Assembly (NCBI GenBank): GCA_023428375.1
Contig: JAEYYR010000002.1
Span: forward strand, 302,077-366,076
Origin: a bacterium
Lineage (GTDB): Bacteria; Babelota; Babeliae; Babelales; Babelaceae
Direction: 5' to 3'
Length of the DNA stretch: 64,000 nt
Each line of letters begins with the position of its first letter. Position 1 is the first letter of the stretch. The notes beneath the pieces were generated by a model that saw only the letters and a list, made by a program, of their open reading frames with translations, made no database searches and had not been told where the DNA came from. Positions 33,121 to 46,144 of this stretch are shown here, piece after piece. The position numbers were made by a program, and so were the translations under genes.

Positions 33121-34476
33121 TTATCTCATATAAGTGAATAAAGTCTTTAAACAGTGATCACTCGTTGGTTTTTGACCCATAAGATATTCATTTCTTTTAG
33201 GTTTGATTGAACAATGTTCTTTATAAACATTTTTATACAAGCACCAGAGGGCCATTTTATTTACATCATTCATAAAGGTATATGAATAATTTTTAAATAT
33301 TCTGCGTTCTGATTTTTCTTTTGGATGTATTGACAGCACTATCGCATCTCGCTTTGCCTTTTTGTAACCCCATTCGGCTTCCATATCCTGATTTTGAGCC
33401 ACAAGCATAGCGCCAGAAGGAGTTGTAGCACCTTTTTCAAAAAGACCATACAAAACAGAATTATCTTTTTCGGTATCTAGTACATTATAACATTCTCGAT
33501 ATAAGTTGAATTTTTCAATAGTATATAAGTGAGCATTTTGTAAAAAATGCTGTAAAAATAATTGTTTATTTTCAGTTATAGGTCGTGATTCATATTCTGG
33601 ATAGTTTTGGTTTGGATGTTTTAAAAACTCTCGTAAAGCAATTTTTTCATCCGCAGATTCTTTTGATAAGTATTTAAATAGGCCTAGAAACTTTTGCTGC
33701 TGATAAACATTAAAAGTAACATAATTAATTTCGCTTTCTTCATTTATGTTTGTTTTTAAATCACACGTTAATTCGTACATGAGTGGATTATTATAACTTT
33801 GTAAAAGTTGCACATGTCGACGCAGCGTTTCTTTCGTCTTTTTAATTACCTGGTCTTTATACACATCTTTCAATGTAGGATTTAAATAAATAGAAACAAC
33901 AGGAACACTTGGGTGATTAATGCTGGAATAACAGCCACCTCTATAATTTTGTAATAAAGGTGTCCATGAAACATAGGCGAATATCTCCATGCCATTATGA
34001 ACAAAACATTGATCATAGATACAGGTTACTGCTTTAACACCTTGTGGGTAACTATACGTTTTAAGCTCTTCTTTAAGATAAAAGACATTCTTTTCGTCTC
34101 TTACTTTTGTCAGTTCGCTTTCCCACCCTCCTTGGGAGGCGCAGCCATGAATACAGCAATCGTAGCAAAGATAGTCGTCAAATTTTATAGTTGGTTGGTA
34201 GTATTGTAACCAAGGACGGACTTCTGTGTGCCATTTTTGTGTGCGTTCATCCAACGTAATACGTCGTGTATGTCCCATATGTGTTGGTTCCATCTTGATA
34301 ACAGAGCGATCAAAAAGAAGATAGGGAATATGTTTATTTGATGAGCCAAAGTTGCAAATAGAGCGTTTGAAATTTCCAAATGTTTCTAATATCGATAGGT
34401 ATCGACCACTCAAGGCAGCATCATGAGAAAGTGTGTTATTAGCTATAAGGAACAATAAAAAATATATATAAATCAT
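33121..34476 (-). CDS. Hypothetical Cys-rich secreted protein (451 aa), no domain recognised
   Basis: Signal-like MIYIYFLLFLIANNTLS. Numerous Cys (YLCYDCCIHGCASQGGWE; CIYDQCF). No motif I can assign. Confidence 0.5.
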   Translation of the reverse strand: MIYIYFLLFLIANNTLSHDAALSGRYLSILETFGNFKRSICNFGSSNKHIPYLLFDRSVIKMEPTHMGHTRRITLDERTQKWHTEVRPWLQYYQPTIKFDDYLCYDCCIHGCASQGGWESELTKVRDEKNVFYLKEELKTYSYPQGVKAVTCIYDQCFVHNGMEIFAYVSWTPLLQNYRGGCYSSINHPSVPVVSIYLNPTLKDVYKDQVIKKTKETLRRHVQLLQSYNNPLMYELTCDLKTNINEESEINYVTFNVYQQQKFLGLFKYLSKESADEKIALREFLKHPNQNYPEYESRPITENKQLFLQHFLQNAHLYTIEKFNLYRECYNVLDTEKDNSVLYGLFEKGATTPSGAMLVAQNQDMEAEWGYKKAKRDAIVLSIHPKEKSERRIFKNYSYTFMNDVNKMALWCLYKNVYKEHCSIKPKRNEYLMGQKPTSDHCLKTLFTYMR

Positions 34477-36508: not shown

Positions 36509-37774
36509 TCACGAGACAAGCATCAATTCTTGCCACTTGGTCGTGAAGTTTGGACTTTTTTTAGCGCACTTGGGTTGCCACGATCGCGTGGTGCCGGCTG
36601 CGGCAAAGGTTACGGTGTGTCGACCCCAGGTTTTATTTACGGTATCTATGGTATGCATGACTACAGCTTGTTTAGGGTCGAGGGTATAGAGCAATGATTG
36701 TTGTTGTTCAACGTCCGGTAACAGCCCGCCTATGATAACTCCGGCATTGCGATATAAAACGCCGCTTTGAGCGATGAGTTTGAAGGCTTGATGCGCCTGG
36801 TGAATAAGGTCAGGCGTATAGGATGTTGGTTTGTTAAGCGCTATGCACGTACTGAGAGTGGATAATTTATATTCGGTAGGTGGGGTGACTTTGGTAAAGA
36901 CCACCATATATGAGGCAATCATGCCTTGCTTGCGTAATTTCTCACCAGCAACGCTGCTATGCCACGCTAATGCTTCTCGTACTTCTTGGAGGCTAGAAAT
37001 CGGTCTTCCAAACATACGAGAAACGGTGATTGATTGCTTGGGATCTGCTTCTGCTTGGAGCGTGATGCACGGAATGCCGCGTAATTCTTGTGCCGTTTTC
37101 AATCCGTTGATGGTACATAACTTTCTAATAATTGTGTCATCGCTTGTCTGAAAATCAAACGCGCTTTTAATGCCGTACGAATATAGTTTTTTACTATACC
37201 GATATCCAATGCCCCACACATCTTGTATAGGAGTATTTTTTAGCAAGGTAGCAAGATCTTGATACGTGGTGCTATCAAACACTCCGTTACATGACGCATG
37301 TTTCTTTGCATACTTGTTTGCGATTTTAGCTAATGTTTTTGTGTGCCCGATACCGATTGATATAGGAATTCCTACATTTTTTTTAACGAGTGCTTTCAAA
37401 AAATGCGCGTAGGCTTCATAGGAATTTGATTGTAATGGTTGTACTTGTAAAAACATTTCATCGATAGAATATACTTCATAATCAATAGCGTACGGTTTTA
37501 TTGTCGCCATTACGCGAGCAGACATATCTGCATATAAGGTAAAATTTGAAGAAAGTGTGATGACGTTATTATCTTTAATTAAATCCTTATATTCAAACAC
37601 TGCAGCACCCATGGGAATGCCGAGAGCTTTTGCTTCTTGAGAGCGTGCAATAACACAGCCATCGTTGCTTGATAAAACGACGACCGGCTTGTTATGAAGG
37701 TGAGGATTAAATACTCGCTCACACGACACATAAAAATTATTGCAATCGATAAGAAGTATAGGATTTTTGTTCAT
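36509..37774 (-). CDS. umuC: Y-family DNA polymerase V catalytic subunit UmuC
   Basis: The N-terminus [41 protein letters not shown] closely parallels the E. coli UmuC N-terminus. Confidence 0.85.
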
Positions 37775-37852: not shown

Positions 37853-38527
37853 ATGGTGTTATTTTTATGTATTATGCAGTTTAGTATGGTATATGGCGCT
37901 CGTGATCCAATCCTTTATTTTCCGGTCGACAAACAGCATGGACTTTCTGAGCATCATGTCCCAGGTGATTTACGCACCTTGCGTGATTACGATATTCCTA
38001 CCACGCGTGACACGATACAAGCACACGCTATCATCGTGCAGGATTTATCGGATATGTTTGATGCTGCATTAAATGATGGTATTTCACTGGCGGTAACCTC
38101 AGGCTATCGTTCATATGAAAGACAAAAAGAATTGTTTTCGTATTGGAAGCAAAAATGTAAAAAGCGCGGATTGTCTGACGCGGAAGCTGAATTAAAAACT
38201 AATGAATACTGTGCGTATCCTGGTCACAGTGAACATCAGTTAGGTACTGCATTAGATATTGTTGCAGCAGGACAAACATCGTTAAAAAGTTCTGACGAAA
38301 ATAATAAAGCTTGGCAATGGCTGCATGATAATTGTGAAAAGTATGGTTTTGTTTTGTCATATCCTGAAGGAAAAATAGAATTAACTGGCTATATGTACGA
38401 ACCGTGGCACTTTCGTTGGCTTGGCAAAAAATATGCGCGAAATCTGAAAAAGCAGAAATATAAAGCAAAAGATACTGCGATGACATCTACGCGTTATTTG
38501 CAAAAACTCTATGATCAGTGTCATTAG
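37853..38527 (+). CDS. vanY: D-alanyl-D-alanine carboxypeptidase (VanY / peptidase M15B)
   Basis: SGYRSYERQ, GHSEHQLGTALDI and EPWHFRW Zn-binding motifs. GGAG RBS. Convergent 4-nt overlap with the umuD stop. Confidence 0.85.
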   Translation: MVLFLCIMQFSMVYGARDPILYFPVDKQHGLSEHHVPGDLRTLRDYDIPTTRDTIQAHAIIVQDLSDMFDAALNDGISLAVTSGYRSYERQKELFSYWKQKCKKRGLSDAEAELKTNEYCAYPGHSEHQLGTALDIVAAGQTSLKSSDENNKAWQWLHDNCEKYGFVLSYPEGKIELTGYMYEPWHFRWLGKKYARNLKKQKYKAKDTAMTSTRYLQKLYDQCH

Positions 38528-38988
38528 ACTTTGTGCACAATATAGGTCACCACGCCCCATACTTCAAAATCCATATCTTGCGTGATCACGCGTGATTCGT
38601 ATGCAGGATTTTCTGGTGCAAGAATTATAGTATTTTTTTCAAATAATAAACGCTTGATCGTCATTTCATTTTCAATACGCGCAATGACAATACTGTTATG
38701 TATTGCAGTGCGTGAACGATCTACGACAGCTATATCATTATCATGAATACCGGCACCAATCATAGAATCACCTTTGACGCGTACAAAAAATGTAGCAGCT
38801 GGGTGTTCCACTACTAAATCATGCAAATTGAGTGATTGAGAAATATAATTTTCTGCGGGTGATGGAAATCCTGCCGCCACTCGTGCATCGATAAATGGCA
38901 CAACGGAAGCGTGTTCTGATGCGCAACTAAAAATTGATTTAATGGTGGAATAAGTATGACAAGTGCATACGATATGTGTGTAATTCAT
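38524..38988 (-). CDS. umuD: UmuD (LexA-like S24 self-cleaving peptidase)
   Basis: AAGFPSPAENY (Ala-Gly cleavage site), GDSMIGAGI (catalytic Ser) and VIARIENEMTIKRL (Lys) closely parallel E. coli UmuD. Confidence 0.85.
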   Translation of the reverse strand: MNYTHIVCTCHTYSTIKSIFSCASEHASVVPFIDARVAAGFPSPAENYISQSLNLHDLVVEHPAATFFVRVKGDSMIGAGIHDNDIAVVDRSRTAIHNSIVIARIENEMTIKRLLFEKNTIILAPENPAYESRVITQDMDFEVWGVVTYIVHKV

Positions 38989-40190: not shown

Positions 40191-40334
40191 GATTTATGAT
40201 CCTACATTACTTTTTATTATTCTTTATACCTTTAGAATATCGATTTGATAAGCCTAAAAACAAGTGGTTCTTGCCAATACTCTAGAAAAGTACGTCTTGG
40301 TCGCGTTATTTTTTTATTAATGAGTGGAGTGCGT

Positions 40335-40853
40335 ATGATTCACATAGTTTTATTATTAGGAGTAAGCATGGCTTTGCATACCAAGGATTTTATTTTAGAC
40401 TCTGAAGATTTCAAAGTGGGAGAGTCTATTGATGTACGATTTACGTGTGATGGACAAAATGTACCACCCCGTTTGAACTGGTATTATAATGTTCCAACCA
40501 ATGCTGAAACATTTGCGTTAATATGTGAGGATCCCGATGCGCCTGCAGGCACATGGGTTCATTGGGTCGTGTATAACATTCCGTTTGAACGAAGCACGCT
40601 TGATCATATTGGAGATAGGTCAGAGAAATTATTGGATGGTACCATGCAAGGAAAAAATTCATCATCAAATATCGGTTATGATGGACCTTGTCCACCACAA
40701 GGTCATGGACAACATCGTTATTATTTTAAATTATATGCACTTGATACTACGTTGAAATTAAAGCCTGGAGCAACTAAAGAAGAATTAGAGCAAGCAATGA
40801 AGGGACGTGTATTAGCAGTAGCAGAATTGATTGGTGTTTATGAAAGAAAATAA
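40335..40853 (+). CDS. PEBP-family protein (YbhB/YbcL-like), likely periplasmic
   Basis: FALICEDPDAPAG..WVHWVVYNIP and GYDGPCPPQGHGQHRYYFKLYALD are PEBP signatures. GGAG RBS and a signal-like MIHIVLLLGVSMA at the ATG at 40335 (the track ORF begins at 40245). Confidence 0.8.
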   Translation: MIHIVLLLGVSMALHTKDFILDSEDFKVGESIDVRFTCDGQNVPPRLNWYYNVPTNAETFALICEDPDAPAGTWVHWVVYNIPFERSTLDHIGDRSEKLLDGTMQGKNSSSNIGYDGPCPPQGHGQHRYYFKLYALDTTLKLKPGATKEELEQAMKGRVLAVAELIGVYERK

Positions 40854-40871: not shown

Positions 40872-40907
40872 GAGAAAAGGGGCATTTTACATGCCCCTTT
40901 ATTTTTT
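40872..40907. terminator. Bidirectional rho-independent terminator
   Basis: GGGGCAT-tttac-ATGCCCC hairpin with an A-run upstream and a T-run downstream. Sits between the convergent PEBP and EEP genes. Confidence 0.7.
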
Positions 40908-41850
40908 AGTTAACTTTGAAGTCGATCATTACTGGTAAATGATCACTAATAATTTTGCCTTTTTTTGGAGACAAAATACATTGGGTTAATACTTGAATTT
41001 TCGATGGATCATGTACGGTAATGAAATCAATTTTTTTGTGACCGGCTGTCCACTCTTTTGTTAAAGCAGTATACGTTGGCCCATATTTCTTTTCCGCAAG
41101 CTCTGCAGTATCTACCACTGGGTAGGCTGGATTTCTAATAACTTTTCCTAATGATGATTCAGGATCTAATGAAAGATCATTAAAGTCTCCTGTTAAGAAT
41201 GCGATTTCGTTATCTTTCACTTTTTTCATCATTTCTGCAAGAATTAATGCCAATCCTTTTTCTCGAGCTTCTTTTGATTTAACGGCTAAATGAGTGTTAA
41301 ACATCCAAAAAATTTGTTTTGTATTTTTATCTTGCAATTTGATCCATGAACATATGCGGTTATAAGGCTCTCCCCATCCTTGTTTATTTTCTTTTTTATC
41401 TTTATTGAGCCAAAAGGTACCATGATCTAATTTTTTAAACTTATCTTTTCGATAAAAAATTGAGCTATGTTCACCTTCAACATTTATTACATCGCTGAGA
41501 GGAATATTAACTTTAATTTTGCCGATTTTTACTTTTTGATCCTTCACGCCTTCTTTTCTGCCGCGACCGATCCATGAATAATTATTTTTAATGAATGGAC
41601 TATCGAGCAAGCTGTCAATTTGTTTTCTATAAGCTTCTTGTACGCCAAAAAAATCTGGTTCTGTGTCTTCAAGTAGCGAACGGATGTTGTTAACACGTGC
41701 TGGCCAGAGACGTGCGCTTGCATCTTCTTTTCCCATACGTCGAAGATTAAAGGTCATAATGCGGTATGCGCCTTCGATACGCGGGCAATTTTCATTATAA
41801 ACGTCTGCAAGAAGTTGTAGGCAGCTTAAGAATACTATTAATCGTTTCAT
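40906..41850 (-). CDS. Secreted endonuclease/exonuclease/phosphatase (EEP) family protein
   Basis: Signal peptide MKRLIVFLSCLQLLADVYN. The C-terminal SDHLPVMIDF and internal FNTH/GDFN blocks are characteristic of the EEP fold. Confidence 0.7.
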   Translation of the reverse strand: MKRLIVFLSCLQLLADVYNENCPRIEGAYRIMTFNLRRMGKEDASARLWPARVNNIRSLLEDTEPDFFGVQEAYRKQIDSLLDSPFIKNNYSWIGRGRKEGVKDQKVKIGKIKVNIPLSDVINVEGEHSSIFYRKDKFKKLDHGTFWLNKDKKENKQGWGEPYNRICSWIKLQDKNTKQIFWMFNTHLAVKSKEAREKGLALILAEMMKKVKDNEIAFLTGDFNDLSLDPESSLGKVIRNPAYPVVDTAELAEKKYGPTYTALTKEWTAGHKKIDFITVHDPSKIQVLTQCILSPKKGKIISDHLPVMIDFKVN

Positions 41851-42090
41851 AAATATGTCCCCTTTTTTATCAAGATAGCGGTTTGTTTACTAGATAAACA
41901 ATATTTGTTTGCTAATCGTATATTGTCGCATCGAGTCTGATGTTAGCGATTGCGCTATCGGGATTGTAAATTTACTAATAGCTATAAATAGTGATGTTTA
42001 TGTAGTTTTCAAGTTTGACAAATAGAAACATTTAAAATACTTTTAATCTAATAATAAATGTAGTTGTAAATATAAATTTAGGGGCGAGTC

Positions 42091-45000
42091 ATGGCTTATA
42101 AAAGCTTTACTCTTACGTATTTTATGGCATTTTTTTTGCTCGCCAATGCTTTTGGACACATGGATCCAAATTGGTGCGGTAATAAACATGCAAATCTTGT
42201 TAAGCTTCAAACAATTGTTCAATCTACATCAGATGTAGAAGTACCACCATTTATTGGTATTTCAACGGGACGAGTGGAAGCATTTTTACGTAAACATAGC
42301 CCACAAATATTTAAAAAATATGCTTTTGTAGTAAACAGACTTACTGGTAAAAAAACGTCATTAAGTAAGATCATGAACGCCATGACTGGTTTGAATAATC
42401 TTTCTAATGAAGATATTTTACAGCAAATACAAGGTGAGATAAGAAGTTGTTTTTATAACCATATGTTTGATTTTACTGATGAAGAATCTTCGACCTATGC
42501 AAAATGGACAGCAGAAAATCAATTTTGCATGGTGCGAAGTACCGGTGTTGAAGATAGTCAGACCGTAGCCAATGCCGGCGGTAATCTGAGCTTAGCGTAT
42601 GTTAAACCAGATTATTACTTCATTAATAATGCTATGGGGGAAGTTATTGCCTCATATTTTGGCATGCAATCCTTAAAAAATCGCATAGCTGGCGGCGAAG
42701 AGCTCTCTGCAACTGATCTTTGTTTGCCAGTATTAATTCAGCTGTTAATTGGTGAAAATATTGGTGGTAGCTCAAATCCACAAGAAATTCCAGTATCGGG
42801 TGTGGCATTTACAACCAATCAAGGATTAAGTGCACCTAATTTTTCAATAGCAGAAATAAATGCTTCATATGGTCATGGTGAAGGTATCGTAGCCAATAAA
42901 GTTATTGCTGATCGATATTACGTAACCACATCAAAAATTGATAATTCGCTTTCAATATATCCCATGGTTTATCAAAAAGCATTTCGTTTAGTCCCTGGGC
43001 GATACAATGATCATGGGCTTATATCAATAAAAAATCCTCATGCATTAATGAACAAAAGTGCGTTATCTGAATCCCAGATTACATCGTTGTACAAAGCACT
43101 GAAAACTATTGAGAATTCATACGGGCAACCAATGGATGTCGAATTCGTTGTGGTTGGTCCTAAGATTTATATTGTACAAGCACGTCCTGCTATGCGTCAT
43201 GTTGCTACACCGTCATACTTGAATTTTGAAAAACTTTCTGAACAAGATATTTCAACTCCATTACAAGTTATGACATTAGTACCTGGTAATGCCCAATTAC
43301 AAGTCATTACCAATCCACAAGATATTATTGTTGCTAATACGTTAGATGATGCTGATCAAATGCCTAATAATGCAAAGGCTAAAGCAGTTATTGTTCATGC
43401 ATGGGCATCATCATTATCTCATGCCGCCGTGAATTTCATTAGTCATGGTATTCCCTGCTTATATGCGCAAAATAAAACAGAATTATCACAATTAATCGCG
43501 GGTATTTCACCTCAAACGCCGTTAATTATAGATTCTCAACGGCGCCTTATTACTTTGTGGCAAGGTTCTAAAAACATTGAACAATGTACTATCAGTGGAT
43601 GGTTTGAGCATCCTATAGATCGAGCGTATTCATGTATAGCGCAGGAACAATTAACTACAACAAATACAACTATTTCATTGCCTGTGGATGCACGGTTATT
43701 AACATTACTTGATAGATTTAAAAAGACGCAAAATGTCGTTGAACAAAAGAATATCATTGGTGAAATTGCTGAACGTGTGAATGGTCGACTTGCATTAACG
43801 AATCATCGTATAAAGCACTTACACTTAATAAACTCTGATATTCACAAAGCGCTACAAAAATTTAATATTACTTTTGATGGAATTATTGCTGAGCTATTAT
43901 TTGCAGTCGATCACACAGCAGATCATTTTGAAGTATTATTTTATCATAAAATGTTAGAAGCATTATTATTCCAAGAATCAAATAATCAATTGCTTGGTGC
44001 GTATACGTATTCCTATTTTTTGAATGATTTGTTTAGTTCTCAAACGTTATTTGCCATGATGAGGCAAGCCCATGCAAACAAAGAATTAAATACCTTAATT
44101 TCTTATGCAAAGAGTGCGCCAAATACAGGCATTGCCCAAAAATGGACATCATTTTTGCAGATGATTGAGCAATGCAAATTAACTGATGATCCTGCTCTTG
44201 AATCAGAAATTGCGCAGTTAAAAACCTTATTGGCTCAATATGAATCAAATAATTGTTTATCTCTTTGGTTTGCAACTGAATTTTATCAAGTAAGTAATTC
44301 GTTCAATCTTTCTTCTCAGGAAGAAGTACGTAAGGGGTTAAGTCAATTAGTTAAAGTATTTACGAAAGATTCATTGCAGTTTATGGCAATGTTGCAACAC
44401 CTTGCTCATACTATGCATACAATTTCGATGCAGCGTGGAAATAATTTTACTAAAGTAACAGCAATCGACGATGTGTGGAAGCAAATAAAAAACGAAATTG
44501 TTGCACCACTTCAATCTGCAGAATTCATTAATAGTTTTATGAATGCTCCATTAACCCTAAAAATTAACGCATGCCAAATAATGCATTCTGCTATTGATAT
44601 GATTGATACGACTATCAAAACAGTTAAAAGCAGTCATGGAATAGGGTGGAATGATCGTATTCATTATTTTAAAATTATGTTGATTGATTTTAATTTCCTA
44701 TGCTCATCATTCTTGATGCACATAATGCCTAGAGAAGCTTTACGTTATCATTTTGATTGGCCTTTATCGTCATATTTGACGCGAAAGAAATCACATCTCG
44801 ATACTATTCTTTTCAATAGTAATGATGAGAGTATGTTTCAACGATCATCAAATTTTTCAGTTAATGCTGCTATGTTAGGCAGTGCGACAGCGTTTGAAAG
44901 ACATTACCCTGAAACCGCAGAAGATATCTTTATGCTTATCCATCAAAATAGTTTGATGGCCGTAGCTGGTACCTATGCATCTTTGTTTACGCAGAGACCC

Positions 45001-45594
45001 CTAGATGAGCAAATTGTATTACCCGAATTGCTGAGGTCTGTTATGCGTTATTGTGAAACAGAGGAATGTATCAATATATTACAGGAACGAAATATACAGG
45101 CACCAGTGCGTATGGGGTTAAATTATACCCCCGAAATGATAGTATTGGCTTATAATATGTCTTTACGTAATCATAGTTCAACATTCCAAATAAAATATAA
45201 TCAAGCAACACAACAAGCCTCAATCGCGGTTCAATTTCTTGGCGAATCACGTGGTCGATGGGAGCAAATAGCATTGCTTGCAAACTTAAGCAAAGATATA
45301 AGTAACTTAGAGCTTTTAAATGAGGTTGTTCTTGATAAAAAAGCAGGTATCACTTCATGGGAATGGATTATTCATAATCAAAAAGAATTTGAACTGATTA
45401 TGAAATATCTTGGAGTATGTGGCACCTTATCATTTGAACGAAATATTAATATAGATGAACTGGCATCATTAGCTACTATTAAAAACTTTAAAAACGAAAT
45501 AAAGCGCATCATTGCAACATATCGTGACAACTATTCGCATCAATTAATTAATTACTTAATGATTGAATGTGATAATTTAGAATATTTAAATTAA
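42091..45594 (+). CDS. Large secreted protein: PEP-synthase/PPDK-like ATP-grasp and phosphohistidine domains fused to a ~700-aa uncharacterised C-terminal region
   Basis: Signal-like N-terminus. GNKHANLVKL (like GGKxAxLGE), MVRSTGVEDSQTVANAGGNLS (like VRSSATAEDLPxASFAGQ), KIYIVQARP (like LYILQxRP), and AWASSLSHAAVNFISHGIPC (like GGRTSHAAIIARELGIP swivel His). No PEP/pyruvate TIM-barrel motifs seen afterwards. Confidence 0.7.
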   Translation: MAYKSFTLTYFMAFFLLANAFGHMDPNWCGNKHANLVKLQTIVQSTSDVEVPPFIGISTGRVEAFLRKHSPQIFKKYAFVVNRLTGKKTSLSKIMNAMTGLNNLSNEDILQQIQGEIRSCFYNHMFDFTDEESSTYAKWTAENQFCMVRSTGVEDSQTVANAGGNLSLAYVKPDYYFINNAMGEVIASYFGMQSLKNRIAGGEELSATDLCLPVLIQLLIGENIGGSSNPQEIPVSGVAFTTNQGLSAPNFSIAEINASYGHGEGIVANKVIADRYYVTTSKIDNSLSIYPMVYQKAFRLVPGRYNDHGLISIKNPHALMNKSALSESQITSLYKALKTIENSYGQPMDVEFVVVGPKIYIVQARPAMRHVATPSYLNFEKLSEQDISTPLQVMTLVPGNAQLQVITNPQDIIVANTLDDADQMPNNAKAKAVIVHAWASSLSHAAVNFISHGIPCLYAQNKTELSQLIAGISPQTPLIIDSQRRLITLWQGSKNIEQCTISGWFEHPIDRAYSCIAQEQLTTTNTTISLPVDARLLTLLDRFKKTQNVVEQKNIIGEIAERVNGRLALTNHRIKHLHLINSDIHKALQKFNITFDGIIAELLFAVDHTADHFEVLFYHKMLEALLFQESNNQLLGAYTYSYFLNDLFSSQTLFAMMRQAHANKELNTLISYAKSAPNTGIAQKWTSFLQMIEQCKLTDDPALESEIAQLKTLLAQYESNNCLSLWFATEFYQVSNSFNLSSQEEVRKGLSQLVKVFTKDSLQFMAMLQHLAHTMHTISMQRGNNFTKVTAIDDVWKQIKNEIVAPLQSAEFINSFMNAPLTLKINACQIMHSAIDMIDTTIKTVKSSHGIGWNDRIHYFKIMLIDFNFLCSSFLMHIMPREALRYHFDWPLSSYLTRKKSHLDTILFNSNDESMFQRSSNFSVNAAMLGSATAFERHYPETAEDIFMLIHQNSLMAVAGTYASLFTQRPLDEQIVLPELLRSVMRYCETEECINILQERNIQAPVRMGLNYTPEMIVLAYNMSLRNHSSTFQIKYNQATQQASIAVQFLGESRGRWEQIALLANLSKDISNLELLNEVVLDKKAGITSWEWIIHNQKEFELIMKYLGVCGTLSFERNINIDELASLATIKNFKNEIKRIIATYRDNYSHQLINYLMIECDNLEYLN

Positions 45595-45608: not shown

Positions 45609-45638
45609 AAAAGGGATCCGATCGGATCCCTTTTTTTA
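45609..45638 (+). terminator. Rho-independent terminator
   Basis: AAGGGATCC-gatc-GGATCCCTT hairpin plus a T7 run. Confidence 0.7.
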
Positions 45639-45700: not shown

Positions 45701-46144
45701 TTGAAGAAGATTTACGCAATACTATTTTTTTTTCTGATGTATGGTGAATTATTTTCTATGCATCCTACAGTAAGAATGGGCTTGGCTTCATCTTCGGTGA
45801 TTGTGCCAGGCATGTATTATTATCATAAGAATTATGCCAATGACAATGCGGAATATAATACAGGCAAAAACAATATGTATAAAGGTTACGTCAGTGGTGC
45901 TTGCTGGGGATTAATTCCCTATGTTAATTTTGCGATTCTTACTGGTCTAAGTCTCGGCACAATAGCAATTGATATCAATGATTGGTTTCGAGATGAGAAA
46001 ACAAAGTTGTTTAGAGACAACTATGATTCCAGTGCCGAAAGAAAAAAGGCTAAATTGACCGGTTTTATTTGTGGGTGTATTTCTTCAGGAATTACCTTTT
46101 TTGGTAATAGACCAGGATTTATTAGTCGTCTACGAAAAATTTAA
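45701..46144 (+). CDS. Hypothetical small membrane protein
   Basis: ORF with hydrophobic N-terminal and central segments. No recognisable domain. Confidence 0.4.
   Translation: MKKIYAILFFFLMYGELFSMHPTVRMGLASSSVIVPGMYYYHKNYANDNAEYNTGKNNMYKGYVSGACWGLIPYVNFAILTGLSLGTIAIDINDWFRDEKTKLFRDNYDSSAERKKAKLTGFICGCISSGITFFGNRPGFISRLRKI

Follow-up and report, generated by a model that had tools for sequence, protein, structure and literature searches.

A putative exported dikinase with an undescribed C-terminal domain in intracellular bacteria of protists

Gene structure and domain organization

Here, we examined a 64-kb stretch of DNA from a bacterium of the Babelaceae (Babelota; GenBank assembly GCA_023428375.1, contig JAEYYR010000002.1, positions 302,077 to 366,076 of the forward strand; 64,000 nucleotides, hereafter the window). 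We focused on one gene in it, an intact and complete open reading frame (ORF) at 42091-45594 (+) that starts with ATG and, stop codon included, encodes a protein of 1167 amino acids (aa), exactly as given in a preliminary description of this DNA that was made from the sequence alone. On the basis of domain identities, conservation of catalytic residues, novelty of the C-terminal fold, signal peptides, taxonomic distribution and split forms of the gene, we favor, on balance, the view that its product is a Sec-exported and catalytically competent dikinase, which belongs to the phosphoenolpyruvate (PEP) synthase/PPDK mechanistic class and has a new acceptor domain.

The isoleucyl-tRNA synthetase encoded in the window was closest to named Babeliaceae/Dependentiae sequences (56-58% identity). 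An identical protein (P0001) is annotated on a public 1.12-Mb contig without a name, and no paralogues of the gene were found within the 64-kb window. The GC content of the gene (34.5% vs 35.4% for the window) and its codon usage (r=0.87 against six housekeeping genes of the window) gave no compositional sign of recent horizontal acquisition, which was therefore rejected. The features of the locus are as follows (coordinates are those of the window):

41851..42090 (+): upstream intergenic region, AT-rich (240 bp, GC 28.7%)
42080-42084 (+): Shine-Dalgarno-like AGGGG, 6 nt before the ATG, read directly from the sequence
42091..42150 (+): residues 1-20, a Sec-type signal peptide (MAYKSFTLTYFMAFFLLANA, with FGH after it); putative cleavage after A18-N19-A20
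42175..43200 (+): ATP-grasp nucleotide-binding domain (PPDK_N; Pfam PF01326, E=3.6e-32), residues 29-370
43201..43314 (+): linker 1, residues 371-408; conservation 0.32, below that of both flanking domains
43315..43626 (+): phosphohistidine (phospho-His) swivel domain, residues ~409-512; codon of the catalytic His444 at 43420-43422
43627..43689 (+): variable linker 2, residues ~513-533; low conservation and low alignment occupancy, pLDDT 56 at 520-529
43690..44514 (+): weakly conserved all-helical region of stacked helical bundles, residues 534-808; conservation 0.27
44515..45591 (+): conserved C-terminal core (C-core), residues 809-1167; helices, a four-stranded antiparallel sheet (1006-1050) and packing helices
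45609..45641 (+): intrinsic terminator, palindrome AAAAGGGATCC GATC GGATCCCTTTT followed by a T-run, found by terminator scan and direct reading

The gene looks like a single-gene transcription unit, because a Shine-Dalgarno-like element precedes it and a palindrome with a T-run lies 15 nt after its stop codon. This palindrome is perfect and GC-rich. The 240-bp upstream region had been described as an AT-rich promoter region; its length and AT-richness were borne out, but promoter-like hexamers in 41851..42090 were no commoner than in shuffled sequence and no promoter was assigned. In addition, the palindrome itself (AAAAGGGATCCGATCGGATCCCTTTT, 45609-45634) separates the dikinase gene from the ORF that follows and could terminate transcription in both directions, and a similar hairpin is present at 40876-40900, after the gene of a PEBP-family protein (see below).

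Catalytic residues of the ATP-grasp and swivel domains

The preliminary description had proposed an ATP-grasp domain and a phospho-His swivel domain with intact catalytic residues, and quoted several motifs for them. All of these motifs are present, and the PPDK_N match given above is far beyond chance; the key residues that we identified in the ATP-grasp domain are listed after them:

Residues 30-39: GNKHANLVKL
Residues 148-165: VRSTGVEDSQTVANAGGN
Residues 359-366: IYIVQARP
Residues 441-456: SLSHAAVNFISHGIPC
Key residues of the ATP-grasp domain: K32, R149, S150, E154, D155, N161, G163, K296, D349, E351, Q363 and R365

The mobile PEP-utilizers domain (PF00391) was matched only weakly by the single sequence (residues 409-459, E=0.0027, under the gathering score). 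An NCBIfam PEP-synthase model covered both domains, with residues 25-457 aligned to model positions 17-432 (E=5.5e-24). The scores fell well under the NCBIfam equivalog cutoffs, that is, 84.2 bits vs 598 for NF005057 and 73.6 bits vs 739.75 for TIGR01418. When PDB sequences were searched with phmmer, residues 235-461 aligned to the PEP synthase 8a8e, with LSH(444)AAV over TSHAAI, and a profile of 70 family members aligned to the same structure over positions 34-462 (E=3.6e-29), with lSHpAv over TSHAAI. In PEP synthases 8a8e and 2ols, the residue to which His444 aligns is the catalytic His. The family profile matched chains of the Listeria rifampin phosphotransferase (RPH) over the ATP-grasp domain only; its E values to PEP synthase and RPH structures were about 1e-29.

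To measure residue conservation, 102 full-length homologues with 23-69% identity to the query were aligned with MAFFT. Eleven of the key residues listed above (all except K32), together with H444, were invariant in 102 of 102 sequences. K32 was found in 96 of them and the other 6 are gapped there, so all sequences covering this position have it. The swivel domain showed the same pattern (S443 in 100 of 102 and Q483 invariant), and its last strands (478-481 and 486-489) are visible in the predicted model. The GNK motif that contains K32 sits over the GgK motif of PEP synthase in the 8a8e alignment. Lys22 was found to be essential in RPH and PPDK by mutagenesis (PMC4844700). K32 would occupy the motif position of this Lys22, the correspondence running through the 8a8e alignment rather than through a direct alignment to RPH or PPDK. 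The proposed module was thus supported by Pfam, by the alignments to 8a8e and by conservation among homologues.

An undescribed C-terminal region

To date, no Pfam, NCBIfam or PDB-sequence match has been obtained past approximately residue 460. Pfam searches with the single sequence's C-terminal region and with that of 22 family members revealed no recurrent family (a DUF5129 match with E=0.056 was not reproduced), and the TIM barrel of PEP-utilizing enzymes (PEP-utilizers_C, PF02896) had no Pfam match in this region. We examined two structural models: the first (m318a7773350d) spans residues 470-1167, was built with a 70-sequence alignment and has a pLDDT of 91.2 and a pTM of 0.86, and the second spans residues 809-1167 with a pLDDT of 95.4. 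The order of elements in the first model is the last two swivel strands, the linker at 520-529 (the stretch of lowest confidence), approximately 20 helices across residues 534-1000, and then a four-stranded antiparallel sheet with packing helices across residues 1006-1167.

A TIM barrel is impossible here because the modelled topology consists of helices followed by an antiparallel sheet. A diverged TIM barrel, which the preliminary description had named as an outcome that would speak against its proposal, was therefore rejected in view of the secondary structure that both confident models show. Its main statement on this region, that a different and large helical domain takes the place of the PEP/pyruvate TIM barrel, agreed with our results: ∼630 aa of helices and a small sheet with no convincing relative in the PDB. 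It had also called the region a target-binding module, which appears too narrow, as the region contains a conserved core of ∼300 aa with invariant polar residues.

Foldseek comparison of the C-terminal models with the PDB gave nothing at E<=0.001. The best match was Vps34 (E=0.017, TM 0.12), which, like some scattered kinase-like folds, was treated as noise. The rifampin-binding domain of RPH was absent among the Foldseek matches though it was in the searched library. On the basis of these results and the PDB sequence searches, homology of the C-terminal region to the rifampin-binding domain or to any solved structure was rejected, and the fold is new in that it has no convincing solved or Pfam relative. 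It should be noted that the non-significant matches of the longer model were rich in kinase-like folds, including Vps34, mTOR, Pan3, aminoglycoside phosphotransferases and CK2; their TM-scores were ∼0.1 with E>=0.017, and they were considered to be noise as well.

The invariant or near-invariant polar residues of the core are located between residues 809 and 1060: D839, K843, E944, D945, H951, Q952, N1022, H1028, S1029 and R1056. This inventory (Arg, Lys, Glu/Asp, Gln and His) is of the kind expected at a phosphoryl-transfer site. Judging from these conserved residues, the polar cluster of the C-core is probably a second (acceptor) active site.

Occurrence of the family and its fusions

A word-indexed search identified 255 relatives. 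When the C-terminal region served as the query of an exhaustive phmmer search, 476 clusters at 50% identity were recovered, 330 of which had E<=1e-10. In full-length matches the C-terminal domain was always downstream of the ATP-grasp-swivel module. We found no C-core that was independent of this module or combined with other partner domains, since stand-alone matches were either truncated gene calls, which start within conserved motifs, or second halves of split genes. A search with a C-core profile gave the same picture: 14 short proteins were among the matches listed, and all were second halves or fragments. Thus, the C-core occurs only when joined to, or encoded beside, an ATP-grasp-swivel module.

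The family is almost confined to intracellular bacteria of protists (Dependentiae, Chlamydiota and Legionellales). In a taxonomic scan of one genome per GTDB species, 75 loci were found: approximately 25 in Chlamydiota/Parachlamydiaceae, approximately 12 in Dependentiae/Babeliales, 4 in Legionellales/Coxiellaceae, approximately 11 in unclassified Gammaproteobacteria/Pseudomonadota and a few in other or unlabelled metagenome-assembled genomes (MAGs). Several copies were often present within one genome. No viral homologues were found.

Family members reach 2,657 aa and may carry added domains, as follows:

P0089: fusion with an N-terminal ubiquitin C-terminal hydrolase (UCH)
P0101 and P0115: fusion with C-terminal ankyrin repeats
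Some family members: fusion with C-terminal HEAT repeats

The extra domains were seen in P0089, P0101, P0115, P0081 and 7 of 20 giant members (alignment A3).

The public names of members are 'PEP/pyruvate-binding domain-containing protein' or 'phosphoenolpyruvate synthase'. For example, a homologue from Legionella dresdenensis (P0110, WP_382344563.1) is named 'Phosphoenolpyruvate synthase' in NCBI/UniRef although the family has no PEP/pyruvate-binding domain. Such annotation is misleading for metabolic reconstructions of reduced genomes.

Signal peptides and split genes

The N-terminus of the protein shows the n/h/c pattern of a Sec signal peptide, with K4, a hydrophobic stretch at residues 5-17 and then A18-N19-A20, and this segment ends approximately 10 residues ahead of the first ATP-grasp motif. 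Family members from Dependentiae carry a signal peptide of the Sec type. Thus, the signal-like hydrophobic start noticed in the preliminary description is real, and an equivalent hydrophobic N-terminus was found in 29 of the 35 closest homologues and in 32 of 80 distant, largely Chlamydiota-like members.

The secreted context that had been proposed is plausible, and is better supported by homologues that are split into two adjacent ORFs, each half having its own signal peptide. We identified such genes in three Dependentiae genomes:

L026 2549-6222 (Ca. Dependentiae bacterium Noda2021, complete genome): split gene, adjacent ORFs of 782 and 434 aa
L008 2462-6195: split gene, adjacent ORFs of 817 and 428 aa
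L007 2474-6156: split gene, adjacent ORFs of 711 and 511 aa

The two halves lie in different frames, and the split occurs at two positions, near query residues 735-800 and 664. Each of the three second ORFs opens with a signal-peptide-like leader of its own, and such a leader was also present in 9 of 11 stand-alone second-half proteins in databases. First and second halves share contigs, and further such pairs are present in the protein database. The finding that first halves of one type end at conserved sequence argues against assembly errors. Because of the separate leaders and the co-occurring pairs, both halves appear to need export and the C-core appears to be an autonomous unit. Split genes with a signal peptide for each half argue strongly for export. 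For Chromulinavorax, a member of the Dependentiae that is in culture, signal peptides have been described on 44% of proteins, and Sec is considered the exit route of putative effectors (PMC6561590).

Genomic context

The divergent neighbour of the gene at 40906-41850 (-) encodes an EEP-family protein (Exo_endo_phos, PF03372, E=6.3e-9) with a hydrophobic N-terminus, as had been predicted; it also has a weak match to MnuA membrane nucleases. The preliminary description went on to suggest that the two genes form a kinase/phosphatase effector pair, and this suggestion could not be sustained. When the EEP protein was compared by tblastn with 78 other family loci (∼4-5 kb of flank each), no homologue was found within ∼4 kb of any of them (0 of 78), and three homologue neighbourhoods that were inspected had no shared synteny and contained unrelated housekeeping genes. 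A conserved pairing was therefore rejected.

Some other genes of the window are mentioned here as side observations. A PEBP-family (PF01161) protein with a signal-like N-terminus is encoded at 40245-40853 (+), ∼1.2 kb upstream of the dikinase gene. In a Parachlamydia MAG, a 40%-identical PEBP gene (L055 2168-2608) lies on the same strand, 16 nt upstream of a 1351-aa homologue of the dikinase. PEBP genes were near a family gene in only 2 of 80 loci, and this may be coincidence. Downstream of the terminator, a small ORF of 147 aa at 45701-46144 (+) encodes several hydrophobic segments, one of them at its N-terminus; it had no family match and was absent at other family loci. A Y-family DNA polymerase (IMS domains and DUF4113; 36509-37774, -) and a Peptidase_S24 (LexA/UmuD-like) protein (38524-38988, -), with a VanY-type D-Ala-D-Ala carboxypeptidase gene between them (37853-38527, +), look like an SOS-mutagenesis-type pair in a genome of ∼1.1 Mb. 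In addition, the window encodes an ankyrin-repeat protein of 416 aa (62324-63574, +), which is typical of effector-rich Dependentiae, and a 451-aa ORF (33121-34476, -) with no Pfam match.

Proposed mechanism and alternative explanations

In the mechanism that we propose from the conserved residues, ATP would be bound by the N-terminal ATP-grasp domain and its beta-phosphate would be attacked by His444 of the swivel domain, presumably in the manner of PEP synthase, PPDK and RPH, leaving AMP, whereas the gamma-phosphate would pass to water or to inorganic phosphate (Pi). AMP and Pi would thus be the products of beta-phosphate transfer via phospho-His. The phospho-His domain, which lies between two flexible linkers, would then move to a C-core pocket formed by D839, K843, E944, D945, H951, Q952, N1022, H1028 and R1056, where the phosphoryl group would be handed to an acceptor. 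The poorly conserved helical region (534-808) is probably used for target recognition.

For an exported ATP-dependent enzyme to be sensible, there must be ATP beyond the bacterial cytoplasm, which in an intracellular energy parasite means the host cytosol or a periplasm fed with host ATP. Dependentiae have been described as energy parasites (PMC6561590). The enzyme depends on ATP yet appears to be exported, and nearly all members of the family come from bacteria that live inside protists. For these reasons, a host-derived molecule in an ATP-containing compartment is the most likely acceptor. The protein is probably an exported 'X, water dikinase'. The taxonomic restriction, the paralogy, the divergence of the helical region and the fusions to eukaryote-type domains also appear to favor a host-directed role. 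As a whole, it is probably a known phosphocarrier engine that has been joined to an undescribed acceptor domain and is exported in a host-directed setting.

A further step can be put forward only tentatively, and we would not call it probable: the family may represent the first class of host-directed effectors with a PEP-synthase-type swivel, delivered into protists by Dependentiae, Chlamydiota and Legionellales and phosphorylating a host macromolecule (protein, lipid or glycan) via an undescribed catalytic domain, and in some lineages two halves may be secreted separately and come together outside the bacterium.

Several points weigh against an exported, host-directed enzyme. First, a Sec signal peptide indicates passage through the inner membrane and not transport beyond the periplasm, and signal peptides were judged here by simple heuristic rules and not by a trained predictor. 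Second, 48 of the 80 distant homologues have no hydrophobic N-terminus, and their export by type III/IV systems is an assumption. Third, some family loci are in MAGs labelled as free-living organisms (Myxococcaceae, Planctomycetes and Oligoflexia). Fourth, the structural models span residues 470-1167 and 809-1167, and docking of the swivel domain on the C-core lies outside them. Finally, a search of the available literature found no paper on the family, nor an acceptor or biochemical data for any member.

The alternative that survives best places the enzyme in the bacterium's own periplasm or envelope, where it would receive host ATP via porins and act on a host metabolite that has been imported, or on a component of the envelope, rather than on a target within the host cell. 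Since a signal peptide proves passage of the inner membrane only, the location would suit it, and it is consistent with the envelope- or periplasm-related neighbour genes (NlpC/P60, VanY, PEBP, DegP and FtsW) and with the finding that the window showed no secretion system dedicated to effectors. We nevertheless consider it unlikely. Approximately half of the Chlamydiota/Legionellales homologues lack signal peptides, the ankyrin, HEAT and UCH fusions involve domains whose usual targets are eukaryotic proteins, the genes around the family loci are not conserved, and the multi-copy and fast-diverging pattern is typical of effector families.

Still less probable is chemistry of the PigC/RedH type, that of a ligase or activating enzyme driven by ATP, in which phospho-His would transiently activate a substrate for condensation, elimination or transfer and the final product would have no phosphate ester. 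The weak, partial NCBIfam matches to PigC (E=3.1e-16) and RedH that suggest this cover only the shared ATP-grasp domain (58 bits vs a cutoff of 1300). The two invariant His and several acid/base residues of the C-core would be compatible with such chemistry, which the dikinase scaffold is known to support (PMC13534948). However, PigC-type enzymes have their domains in an RPH-like order and work within biosynthetic gene clusters, and no biosynthetic cluster was found around the gene or the inspected homologues.

A pseudo-enzyme, another outcome raised in the preliminary description, or a scaffold in which the fold survives without the chemistry, can be rejected with little doubt, because the ATP/Mg-binding residues and the phospho-carrier His are invariant across the 102 homologues; apart from the below-threshold Pfam match of the swivel domain, nothing specific suggested it. 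Least probable of all is an ordinary, divergent PEP synthase/PPDK of central metabolism, which is implied by the public annotation (including the name of the Legionella dresdenensis homologue) and by the best named matches, all PEP-synthase models and structures, and which is effectively refuted by the score (84 bits vs an equivalog cutoff of 598), the missing PEP-utilizers_C match, a C-terminal model incompatible with a beta/alpha barrel (∼20 helices and one small antiparallel sheet) and a signal peptide incompatible with a cytoplasmic gluconeogenic enzyme.

To our knowledge, all dikinases of this class described so far are cytoplasmic. If the protein is indeed an exported dikinase, a member with an unrelated and strongly conserved acceptor domain would extend dikinase chemistry to host-parasite interaction, in a family that spans hundreds of sequence clusters and three unrelated lineages of intracellular bacteria, and the poorly understood Dependentiae would gain an effector activity that is concrete and can be tested. 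A clear plan for mutagenesis follows from the invariant residues, and the split forms with separately exported halves offer a natural two-component system for biochemistry.

Comparison with known dikinases

Members of this dikinase class take part in central metabolism (PEP synthase and PPDK), starch turnover (glucan, water dikinase, GWD), antibiotic resistance (RPH), aromatic catabolism (HpeHI) and pigment synthesis (PigC). The protein described here has the domain order of PEP synthase (pyruvate, water dikinase, EC 2.7.9.2) and PPDK, that is, ATP-grasp, a central swivel with an S/T-H motif and an acceptor domain. It also shares the catalytic residues of the ATP-grasp domain with PEP synthase, and the alignment between the two runs through the catalytic His. 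Unlike these enzymes, it lacks the TIM barrel, in place of which there are ∼630 aa of a helical and small-sheet fold without a solved relative, and the gene product has a signal peptide. The missing barrel, together with scores under all equivalog cutoffs, indicates that it is not a PEP synthase.

GWD and PWD of plants and algae use the same ATP-grasp/phospho-His mechanism to phosphorylate a macromolecule instead of a metabolite. The present protein would belong to the same dikinase class. On the other hand, GWD has N-terminal carbohydrate-binding (starch-binding) modules, which are followed by the His domain and, at the C-terminus, by the ATP-grasp, whereas here no carbohydrate-binding module was detected by Pfam and the ATP-grasp is N-terminal, so that the order is reversed. 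Enzyme I of the bacterial phosphotransferase system (PTS) provides a precedent for a protein substrate, as its homologous swivel His domain passes phosphate to the protein acceptor HPr. Enzyme I lacks an ATP-grasp and receives its phosphate from PEP on a TIM barrel; unlike it, the present protein contains an ATP-grasp domain, and the similarity between the two is seen in the swivel domain only. A link between the PTS and RPH has been discussed (PMC13099321).

The preliminary description had compared the domain logic with that of RPH. In RPH, the order is ATP-grasp, rifampin-binding domain and C-terminal swivel, and the phosphate site contains Arg666, Glu667, Lys670 and Gln336/337 (PMC4844700). 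Here, the swivel (409-512) directly follows the ATP-grasp, as in PEP synthase/PPDK, and neither the fold nor the sequence of the rifampin-binding domain is present; with a domain order and an acceptor domain that are both unlike those of RPH, the protein is not an RPH. The putative acceptor site of the C-core would resemble that of RPH in having Arg, Lys, Glu and Gln. More generally, the protein appears similar to RPH, HpeHI and PigC/RedH/HapC in combining ATP-grasp and swivel chemistry on a non-pyruvate acceptor with a lineage-specific, largely helical domain, and, as in small-molecule dikinases such as the two-component HpeHI, split versions exist. Thus, compared with the known systems, the enzymology would be predictable, and what is new is the acceptor domain, its spread across intracellular bacteria and the separately exported halves.

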